From IMG/VR virus record IMGVR_UViG_2548876853_000015: DNA of 6,725 nt. One strand, given 5' to 3'. The notes under the pieces were generated by a model. That model was not told the origin of the DNA. It did no database searches and saw nothing but the letters and a program-made list of their open reading frames with translations. This DNA comes from a virus (taxonomy: Duplodnaviria > Heunggongvirae > Uroviricota > Caudoviricetes). This document shows, piece after piece, positions 1 to 6,725 of this stretch. Numbering within the stretch: the first letter of the stretch is position 1; every line of letters starts with the position of its first letter. The translations under genes and the position numbers were made by a program.

Positions 1-188
1 AGGCACCAGTAACTGAGAGAGTTGCGCGAATCAGTGGAAAAGCGGGCAGAGAAAATACAGGGAGCATCCGGAAGCTGAGAACGTGCCTCATCTTCTGTCG
101 GTGCAATAACGAAGTGATAGTGACGTTTCTGGCAGGAATAGAAGCGCCAGATGAATTCAGGATGAGTTGGGGTAGGGACAGTAGCCAT
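1..188 (-). CDS. Hypothetical protein, N-terminal part only (ORF continues past the left edge); lies downstream of a C1-operator-like promoter and a long structured leader
   Basis: Minus-strand ATG at 188-186 preceded by a strong SD (AAAGGAGG, 8-nt spacer); frame stays open to position 1 (about 62 codons, MATVPTPTHPEFIWRFYSCQKRHYHF...). Absent from the ORF track only because no stop lies inside the window. No family recognised. Confidence 0.5.
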   Translation of the reverse strand, partial: MATVPTPTHPEFIWRFYSCQKRHYHFVIAPTEDEARSQLPDAPCIFSARFSTDSRNSLSYWC

Positions 189-373
189 AATGGCAGCCTC
201 CTTTGACTAAGTTAAGGAGCTACCGCGTGAGGTCTCAATCTCAATGGCGGTAGCACTGACTGGGTTGAGACTACCGGCGTCAAAGGGAACCGGCCTGCCT
301 TTCGGCAGCCCAGCCAGCACTACCATTGATTTCGGAGCTAAACGCTACGTATGGCTGTGCGATGGCATGACAC

Positions 374-395
374 AAAAAAAGACGCTTTCGGCGTC
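374..395 (-). terminator. Rho-independent terminator-like hairpin on the minus strand (GACGC-CGAAA-GCGTC followed by T7)
   Basis: Plus 381-395 gacgctttcggcgtc forms a 5-bp GC-rich stem with a 5-nt loop; plus 374-380 is an A7 run, giving a U7 tract on the minus-strand RNA directly 3' of the stem. It sits about 150 nt downstream of the pacB stop and about 100 nt downstream of the predicted promoter. Confidence 0.5.
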
Positions 396-501
396 TGTGT
401 CGCCTTTGACATTATCCGGGGTCTCAATCCCGGCACCCGTTTTAATGAGGTGCCTGATAAGCATAAACCGAAAATGCCTCAAGGCGCAAGAGGTCAGGTT
501 C

Positions 502-544
502 AATGTAACATCGGTAGTTAAAAAACACAATTTATTAGAGCAAA
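502..544 (-). promoter_or_regulatory. Candidate sigma70 promoter overlapped by a P1 C1-repressor operator-like 17-mer, immediately 3' of pacB
   Basis: Minus strand 544..528 reads TTTGCTCTAATAAATTG, matching the recalled P1 C1 operator consensus ATTGCTCTAATAAATTT at 15 of 17 positions. A -35 TTGTGT (530..525), 17-nt spacer and -10 TACATT (507..502) follow on the same strand. Confidence 0.5.
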
Positions 545-547
545 TAT

Positions 548-2032
548 TCATTCATTAAGCCATGCCAGAGCTTCATCAACCTGCGCTTCGTCTTCGACGC
601 TAAGCACTTCATCCTGGGGAACATAATCCGCCAGCATAGCGAAACAATATGTATCCCAATGGTCTGGTGAGTGCAGGTTGAGTTTTTTCTTCATATCCTC
701 CTTACTCATCACCTTCCATTGACCTGCGGAGTTAATCCCTACAGGGATTTTCGACGCTTCCTCAATAGTTTCATTACCCTTATCCAGTCTCATACGACCA
801 GATTTTACGGCCTCTGCGGCTTGAACGTTGGCATAAGCACGTTTATCAAAGTACAGGCTCTTATCTTCACGGCTATGCATCTTTTTACCCCAGCGTATGC
901 GCTGTACGGTAATACCATAATACTCGTACATCAGATCCGCCGTTGCTTTACCCAGGCCATCGCCGTCTATCGCTATGGTGATATTTGGGAATCGCTCAGG
1001 ATTACATTCTGCGAAAATTTTGGCGGCAAGCTGCGTTTCTGTAACGTCTGTGTATTCCAGCATTCGATAGTTGATTACACGGCGTTTATTTCGCTGGCCG
1101 GACACCATCATGATATTGATAACGGACTTATCCCGTCCCGTACCACCAGCAACGTCCACACATGCAAGCCAGCCCCATCCTTTTGCAATCTTGACTTTCC
1201 GCCGCGTTGCACGTTCAACCTCATCACGTCCAAGAAGGAAGCCATCCTGTGATTTAGGGAATAGGCCGCGTACCTTAATCATGTACATAGGGTTATCACG
1301 CCCGCCGTACTCCGCCAGCTTCATTTTGATAAATGCTGGCGTTACCAACGGTGATTCCTCACTGTTAAGCGTGATCGCCGTATAAACGCCATCAGGGTTA
1401 CCAGGACGCTTGGCCAGTTTATGGTGTGTATCGTAGAAATAGCCGCTTGGGCGTGTAGGCTGTGACAGTAATAAGATGCGGTTATCCTGTCCGGTAAGAG
1501 CACCGGTGATGATACCGAAAGCTCTATCACTGACACCGGAGGCTTCATCGATAATATACAGAAGATGATCTGCGTGTTCACCGGCAAGAGCTTCTTCACT
1601 TCCCAGACGAAAGCCCTTCGGTACTACAGTCCATACACCTTTACCAGTAACCTCATAGAAAGCGGTTTCTGTCAGAACAAAATAATCAGCAAGCCATGGA
1701 AAACGGCTGGTGGCAGTAGCCCAGTTTATCTTGATGTACTTGAATATACCGGTCATTACCTGCTGAATTTTGTTCGCAACGATAATGGCGCGGGCACCGG
1801 GATACATGATTATGAACAACATGATCATGATAGAAGTCATGTCTGATTTCCCGGTACCGTGACCAGACGAAACAGATGTCTTGCTACCCTGTTCCTGCAC
1901 AGACTCAATAATCAGATCCTGCTGCCAGGTAGGTGTTTTGCCGAACAAAACATCAGCGGCCGCAATCCAGTCATAACGATATAGCGCCACCAGCTCGCGC
2001 CAACGTGGATCCGTTACGCAACTTCTGGCCAT
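548..2032 (-). CDS. pacB: Terminase large subunit (P1 PacB-type), 494 aa
   Basis: 494-aa ORF with a Walker-A-like ATPase motif (SSGHGTGKS). Start ATG overlaps the pacA stop by one nt (TAATG). Size and position match the recalled P1 PacB (494 aa). Confidence 0.9.
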
Positions 2033-3808: not shown

Positions 3809-3850
3809 ATAATACCCTCGATTAAAGAAATAGCAACACATTAGAGCAAT
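3809..3850 (-). promoter_or_regulatory. Candidate sigma70 promoter for lpa with an adjacent C1-operator-like element
   Basis: Minus strand: ATTGCTCTAAT (3850..3840) matches the first 11 positions of the recalled C1 operator consensus (13 of 17 over the full 17-mer). Then -35 TTGCTA (3836..3831), 16-nt spacer, -10 TATTAT (3814..3809). Consistent with lpa being C1-controlled in P1. Confidence 0.45.
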
Positions 3851-6344: not shown

Positions 6345-6725
6345 ATGCCTAATCGCATTCCTCTCGATCCTGTATTGCCCAAAAATTTTGACTGCACTCC
6401 TAACGAGAGACGCTCTAAAGCTCAGCTGGACGCCTGGTGGGACCATCCCTATGGGGTTACAGAACATGACGGGAAAATTGTTGTTTATTGTCTGAATGGT
6501 GGCGCGTGGGACCGTCCATCCGTGCTGGGTTTGGCAAATAACTATGATGAAGCCTGTGAACTTGCCGAAAGACAGCAGGCTAGATGGGTAAAAACGCGGT
6601 CACAGCCGATATTTATGTACTCACAGGAACCTCCATTTGTGCTGGCGAGAATGCCGCAGCGACCGGATCTGAACCGCCCCGGGTTTCCTGGAGAGTATTT
6701 TATCTGTGAACTCAGGCTGCCAGAT
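6345..6725 (+). CDS. Hypothetical protein, 5' portion only (ORF runs past the right edge); divergent from humD across the LexA box, possibly the P1 lxr-like LexA-regulated gene
   Basis: ATG at 6345 with SD AAGGA 7 nt upstream; open for 127 codons to the window end (MPNRIPLDPVLPKNFDCTPNERRSKAQLDAWWDHPYG...). Not in the ORF track because it has no stop in the window. Identity not recognised from sequence. Confidence 0.6.
   Translation, partial: MPNRIPLDPVLPKNFDCTPNERRSKAQLDAWWDHPYGVTEHDGKIVVYCLNGGAWDRPSVLGLANNYDEACELAERQQARWVKTRSQPIFMYSQEPPFVLARMPQRPDLNRPGFPGEYFICELRLPD

Follow-up and report, generated by a model that had tools for sequence, protein, structure and literature searches.

RNAs of the C4 family are about 77 nt long, are processed from the transcript of their own operon and repress in trans. 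The mechanism of immI in phages P1 and P7 reportedly goes back to Citron and Schuster in 1990 and 1992, Riedel and colleagues in 1993 and Heinrich and colleagues in 1994. In P1, leaving icd untranslated also permits premature transcription termination (polarity). P1 Icd has 73 amino acids and its gene overlaps ant1 by 4 nt; canonical immI sits between the sim genes and kilA-repL. In the Gifsy-1 locus isrK-orf45(STnc1160)-anrP, an isrK-type RNA with its own terminator is followed by read-through into a C4/CI-like RNA, a short ORF is translationally coupled (AUGA) to the antirepressor gene, and IsrK is complementary to the downstream RNA (PMC4825925). Hfq binding and trans action on the read-through mRNA have been shown for Gifsy-1 IsrK only (PMC4825925). 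The isrK-type RNA of Gifsy-1 activates by mRNA remodelling and not by titration of the C4-like RNA, and over-expression of the C4-like region failed to block this activation (PMC4825925). According to PMC10111431 and PMC4825925, P4 CI and seqA relatives are picked up by the C4 and isrK profiles of Rfam.

We analysed a stretch of 6,725 nucleotides, hereafter the window, from a Caudoviricetes genome in IMG/VR (record IMGVR_UViG_2548876853_000015). Sequence comparison makes it highly probable that the left end of the window belongs to a P1 immI-type module (operator and promoters, isrK-type RNA, C4, icd and ant) which forms an insert of about 1.7 kb between pacB and c1 and has a pairing specificity of its own. 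The parts follow the same order as in P1/P7 immI, at nearly the same spacing (Table 1). As in these phages, the b2 site adjoins the ribosome-binding site of icd or overlaps it, the distal promoter has a C1 operator (putative in the window), and a 73-codon icd, seen for the window type in phage RCS47, ends in a stop codon that overlaps the ant start. Icd and Ant are 80% and 54% identical to the P1 proteins, respectively. Unlike P1/P7 immI, the module is placed between pacB and c1 and runs convergently with the latter, and in RCS47 it is a second copy beside the canonical immI. Its a/b recognition sequences differ from those of both P1 and P7, the upstream a1/b1 element is of the isrK type where P1 has the Rfam c4-a1b1 element at the equivalent place, and an ORF6N domain stands in the window-type Ant instead of the centre of P1 Ant1.

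The likeness to the two other systems is partial. Gifsy-1 shares the isrK-type RNA with its own terminator, the read-through into a C4-like RNA, the coupled short ORF and the complementarity described above, but its orf45 lies on the C4-like RNA with unconserved amino acids, whereas the window has a separate, conserved icd after C4. Also unlike Gifsy-1, a phage C1 operator-like site precedes the window locus, and the host element is a plasmid prophage. P4 immunity (CI RNA, seqA/seqC) likewise uses a processed antisense RNA with targets up- and downstream on its own transcript. Its outcome, however, is premature transcription termination of replication genes, it operates without icd or ant, and no ribosome-binding site lies at its targets.

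Table 1. Features of the module at the left end of the window and of its upstream neighbour (window coordinates).
Feature	Position	Strand	Details
pacB (terminase large subunit)	548..2032	minus	upstream neighbour; stop TGA 550..548
C1-operator-like site TTTGCTCTAATAAATTG	544..528	minus	15/17 matches to consensus ATTGCTCTAATAAATTT
Distal promoter-like sequence	TTGTGT 530..525, TACATT 507..502	minus	17-nt spacer; counterpart of P1 P2c4 (P51a)
Proximal promoter-like sequence	TTGCGC 489..484, TATGCT 465..460	minus	18-nt spacer; counterpart of P1 P1c4 (P51b)
isrK-type 5' RNA element	453..375	minus	Rfam RF01394, 60.2 bits (gathering 50)
a1 = TTGAGAC	427..421	minus	inside isrK-type element
b1 = GTCAAAGG	410..403	minus	inside isrK-type element
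Intrinsic terminator, isrK-type 3' end	stem 396..380, T-run to 373	minus	terminator scan
C4 antisense RNA gene	330..243	minus	Rfam RF01695, 75.4 bits (gathering 45), E = 7e-14
39-codon ORF on C4 RNA	207..326	minus	'ash family protein' (PGAP, in pZ1323CEC0017-3)
C4 b' = CCTTTGAC	286..279	minus	hairpin loop
C4 a' = GTCTCAA	271..265	minus	single-stranded stretch
a2 = TTGAGAC	238..232	minus	between C4 and icd; complementary to a'
b2 = GTCAAAGG	207..200	minus	complementary to b'; last 4 bases = first 4 of icd Shine-Dalgarno
icd Shine-Dalgarno AAGGAGG	203..197	minus	spacer to ATG 8 nt
icd homologue	1..188	minus	codons 1-62 of 73 plus 2 nt; ATG 188..186

The first-pass annotation had described the leftmost ORF as an unidentified gene with a strong Shine-Dalgarno sequence and an ATG start, downstream of pacB. 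Both signals are present, and the frame reaches the left window edge still open after 62 codons. It runs on the same strand as pacB, which ends at the TGA given in Table 1, and therefore lies downstream of that gene, at a distance of about 360 nt. The statement that the 62 residues match no recognised family holds for Pfam, in which the scan of the ORF gave no family match, but not for other collections. NCBIfam NF033153 (phage_ICD_like, 'host cell division inhibitor Icd-like') matched the 62-aa fragment at 50.3 bits (cut-off 25, E = 1.8e-13), and PHROG 1426 matched the 62 residues with E = 5e-41; scans of Pfam, NCBIfam and PHROGs returned Icd-type families only. A tblastn search of P1 with the ORF protein gave a single match, the icd locus in immI (48491-48688, 80% identity), and none within immC. 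P1 Icd itself is 80% identical to the full-length homologue over residues 8-73. The identification is based on NCBIfam, PHROGs and this direct comparison with P1 Icd; in related plasmids, RefSeq already names the ORF 'host cell division inhibitor Icd-like protein'. By these comparisons the ORF is icd, a P1 immI-type gene, and inhibition of cell division is predicted for its product from P1 Icd, which is reported as a division inhibitor in the P1 record note and in PMC8201110.

The whole window never matched any entry at more than 98.2% identity (the best match in collections of phages, plasmids and E. coli genomes), so the sequence to the left of it was taken from relatives; the 11 remaining icd codons and ant are known from these. 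Window positions 1-700 are 99.1% identical to the DNA of phage RCS47, in which icd encodes 73 amino acids, the first 62 identical to those of the window. Extension to the left had been proposed by the first-pass annotation; followed in RCS47, it leads through the 73-aa icd to ant and then to c1, coi and imcB. In RCS47, the icd stop codon and the start ATG of the antirepressor gene (371 aa) share a 4-nt overlap (ATGA), which lies beyond the window edge and was observed in RCS47 and in PGAP-annotated plasmids only. Both icd and ant are intact in the relatives. RCS47 Ant has a KilAC domain and 54% identity to P1 Ant1.

The RCS47 ant gene (L001, 3855..4970) lies left of the window. Its product is a mosaic relative of P1 Ant1: the N-terminal ~100 and the C-terminal ~145 amino acids are alike, the C-terminus nearly identical, and an ORF6N domain takes the place of the central part.

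The differences between the window icd and P1 icd over codons 8-62 gather at third codon positions (6, 4 and 25 at positions 1, 2 and 3, respectively), which indicates that the frame is a real coding sequence; 19 codon changes are synonymous and 8 non-synonymous. In pCREC-629_2 (L007) and pR17.0904_99k (L008), the icd start is a GTG at the same position as the ATG of the window. The sequence AAGGAGGCTGCCA at the icd Shine-Dalgarno site is kept in all 11 of the aligned modules.

The leader upstream of icd is about 265 nt long, and in the window icd directly follows C4, a2 and b2. The stretch 453..180 folds at -113.5 kcal/mol, compared with -85.3 +/- 5.5 kcal/mol for 200 dinucleotide shuffles, none of which equalled it (z = -5.1); the long structured leader of the first-pass annotation is therefore real. 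At its gathering thresholds, Rfam gives two RNAs in this stretch, C4 and isrK (Table 1). The C4 match spans the full RF01695 model (1-87 of 87), and C4 a' and b' are exactly complementary to their targets at all four sites, over 7 nt (a) and 8 nt (b). The a2 and b2 sites of the window align with the annotated a2 and b2 sites of P1.

The 39-codon ORF on the C4 RNA matches Pfam PF10554 (Phage_ASH) at 28.3 bits, barely above the cut-off of 26, and one base of its TAG stop at 209..207, G207, is shared with b2. The ORF probably exists as a by-product of the conserved RNA, or else corresponds to orf45 of Gifsy-1, and the Phage_ASH family may largely mirror conservation of C4/CI RNAs instead of protein. 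The orf45 and STnc1160 of Gifsy-1 have been described (PMC4825925), and the case of orf45 is comparable to that of the ash ORF. Two further ORFs, 345..551 on the minus strand and 244..558 on the plus strand, were rejected as genes and treated as non-coding since they match no family and overlap the RNA genes.

Upstream of the leader, the C1-operator-like site lies 3 nt past the pacB stop and aligns with P1 Oc4, AATGCTCTAATAAATTT. Such a site is present in the modules of C1-encoding P1-type elements, one of them in a different genomic context, and is absent from the D6-type and Stx-phage modules compared. By consensus match and alignment, the c4 transcript has a putative C1 operator at its promoter. 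The -35 of the distal promoter-like sequence overlaps the operator-like site, and the proximal one ends 6 nt 5' of the isrK element. An equivalent proximal -35/-10 pair occurs in most of the isrK-type modules aligned; Stx1_14040 aligns at the -10 only. A generic sigma-70 scan of window positions 1-700 reported neither promoter and nothing above threshold. Their consensus matches are weak and fall below the scan threshold, so both promoters are proposed from the P1 alignment and conservation.

A second, weaker C1-operator-like site, ATTGCTCTAATGTGTTG (3834..3850, minus strand, 13/17), lies between pdcB and lpa, the place at which the late activator gene lpa of P1 has its C1-controlled promoter. 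At the other end of the window (6664..6725), similarity to P1 and P7 in the lxr region, with a plus-strand ORF from 6346, reaches no further than 6669. The ~56 bases that remain (TGAACCGCCCCGGGTTTCCTGGAGAG...) have matches in many Stx phages and look like a terminal inverted repeat of the IS3 family (IS629/IS1203-like). If these bases are an IS end, lxr is interrupted at the right window edge.

Pairing between C4 and its targets was followed across a set of 11 isrK-C4 modules, whose sources are phage D6, Stx phages and P1-like plasmids. For C4 against a2/b2 in these 11 modules, 100% of the alignment cells were standard-paired and 10 of the 15 pairs showed compensatory double changes (5 of 7 in a2 and 5 of 8 in b2). 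The covariation was 0.674, compared with 0.18 in shuffles, and sliding the partner by 1-3 columns left no more than 0.124; 19-52% of cells were paired in the slid controls. C4 against a1/b1 behaved alike, with 99.4% of cells paired, compensatory changes in 10 of 15 pairs and a covariation of 0.701. Scanning IMG/VR for a pattern of the conserved C4 core yielded at least 123 modules, 122 of them with 150 nt downstream. Among these listed modules, 113 of the 122 had their own a2 and b2 fully complementary within the 150 nt, whereas a foreign C4 differing at both sites gave a full match in none of 12,189 pairings, which suggests that both sites may be needed (AND logic).

The a and b sites come in many combinations. 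The window carries TTGAGAC and GTCAAAGG, P1 carries TTGACAG and GTTAGTGA, and the canonical, P7-type immI of RCS47 carries TTAGCAG and GATTGTGA. D6 shares its a site with the window and has a different b, pEc-050 shares b and has a different a, both sites differ from the window in pCREC-629_2, and 673R5-type variants have yet another a/b specificity. Among the IMG/VR modules listed (L017-L136), 10 a' and 15 b' variants occurred in at least 29 combinations; that of the window was found at least four times in IMG/VR, with a 73-aa Icd after each one listed. Since the window sites differ from those of P1 and of the P7 type, the module should represent a separate specificity, one that by its recognition sequences should not cross-react with canonical immI of the RCS47 type.

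In close relatives of the window, two a types and two b types are seen in all four combinations. An Icd-like ORF follows 34 of 114 C4 modules among the IMG/VR matches listed, and the remaining modules listed have unrelated first ORFs of varied lengths; in the Stx-phage loci L012-L015, taken from the phage collection, the ORF after b2 shares with Icd the beginning MATIP.... It looks as though the C4 switch is a portable cassette set before different genes.

At the left end of the window, similarity to P1 and P7 begins at position 550 and extends rightwards only. The distance from the pacB stop to the c1 stop is 24 bp in P1, compared with ~1.7 kb between pacB and c1 in RCS47, an interval that contains the module in full; further left in RCS47 come c1, coi and imcB, convergent to the module. 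RCS47 keeps a canonical immI (c4-icd-ant1/2-kilA-repL) as a separate locus, and JL22 and vB_EcoM-673R5 have two icd-like places each, with the insert adjoining pacB in both. The suggestion that the element departs from P1 at this point was well founded, the departure being a second immI-type module inserted there. Window positions 1-545 were found in 450 PLSDB records, 326 of which cover at least 80% at 82-99% identity, and of 5,426 complete E. coli genomes, 461 cover at least 80% of the whole window. The insert of pTZ20_1P has been described as two short hypothetical ORFs and an antirepressor gene between pacB and c1, as in RCS47 (PMC6906374). Neither icd, C4 RNA nor an isrK-type element is recognised in that description of the insert (PMC6906374), and icd and RNA annotations are absent from the RCS47 record at the insert.

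In pCREC-629_2 and pR17.0904_99k, the module does not adjoin pacB, and a C1-operator-like site is still seen in pCREC-629_2. Their non-pacB location indicates that the module moves between positions in P1-type genomes.

Taking P1/P7 immI and Gifsy-1 IsrK as models, the module may work as follows. Transcription would start near 453, driven by two promoters, the proximal one constitutive and the distal one under C1 control, and would in part be stopped at the isrK terminator (396..380). The read-through transcript would be processed to release C4 RNA (330..243), the b' and a' of which would pair with b2 and a2 on the mRNA of the same operon. Because this pairing would cover the icd Shine-Dalgarno sequence, icd would stay untranslated. 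With its start codon overlapping the stop of icd (ATGA), ant would be silent too, and polarity would keep it from being fully transcribed. Within the isrK-type RNA, the a1/b1 copies could compete for C4, in cis or as the short RNA in trans, and thereby set the threshold; alternatively, they could act in mRNA remodelling. The remodelling result for Gifsy-1 makes the decoy role uncertain, and the part played by the isrK-type RNA is the least certain step of the proposed mechanism. Once C4 is outrun or titrated, Icd would be made, host division would be blocked and ribosomes would reach ant. Ant would then inactivate the C1 repressor and drive the element into lytic growth; its action on the resident C1 is predicted by similarity alone.

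Three other readings of the locus were weighed. The first-pass annotation had looked to immC, where an imcA- or imcB-like gene, coi or c1 would be expected beside pacB in P1. The geography fits, as P1 c1 lies 24 bp past pacB and the immC genes of RCS47 are found ~1.1-2.5 kb further left, but the sole P1 match of the ORF is icd in immI, the family HMM matched is that of Icd and of no immC protein, and a C4 RNA with its target sites precedes the ORF. We give an immC gene next to no chance. What the ORF matches is a P1 immI gene in a locally rearranged setting, and not a P1 immC gene at an unrearranged locus; the earlier observation of the locus was right and the guess at gene identity mostly wrong.

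An icd gene could still serve as a translated leader only, keeping ribosomes coupled to ant without polarity and encoding a peptide without division activity. The low frequency of Icd-like ORFs after C4 among the IMG/VR matches listed (34 of 114) would fit this, as would Gifsy-1, in which coupling runs through a short ORF that is unrelated and whose amino-acid sequence is poorly conserved (PMC4825925). However, 19 synonymous against 8 non-synonymous changes and 80% identity exceed what coupling needs, and an inhibitory effect on division has been reported for P1 Icd (PMC8201110 and the note in the P1 record), so that a mere leader appears unlikely. Still less probable, and in our view very improbable, is that the module is an inactive remnant of recombination between P1-like elements, devoid of a present regulatory role. 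Its function duplicates that of the canonical immI of the same genome type, and IS1 and IS5 lie nearby in RCS47. Against decay, relatives have intact icd and ant genes, at least 80% of the module is present at 82-99% identity in ~326 plasmid records, and the four sites have stayed complementary to C4 through multiple compensatory changes, which is unexpected for decaying DNA. An immI-type module with its own specificity remains the preferred reading.

With the mechanism of P1/P7 textbook knowledge since the early 1990s, the gain is incremental. All components are members of described families, and their arrangement, a common one, has already been recorded and is annotated in many related plasmids. 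The annotation is settled: the ORF is icd, and the 'structured leader' consists of two known RNA genes and their target sites. Mildly new are only three points: that the pairing specificity is distinct, that a leader of the isrK type occurs in a P1-like context, and that the wider sample shows a combinatorial code of a/b sites.

We suggest tentatively, with somewhat more doubt than confidence, that in many P1-like plasmid prophages two antirepressor switches, each under antisense control, work independently: the canonical immI and the present one beside c1, which has an isrK-type decoy RNA. Their recognition code would be combinatorial, with possible AND logic. If so, two specificities would widen both the range of superinfecting relatives that a lysogen silences and the range of resident prophages that an invading element can induce, and the a/b diversity would record an arms race among co-circulating phage-plasmids. 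In E. coli and Salmonella, P1-like phage-plasmids frequently carry resistance genes. A second switch with its own specificity would affect which of them coexist with, exclude or induce one another.
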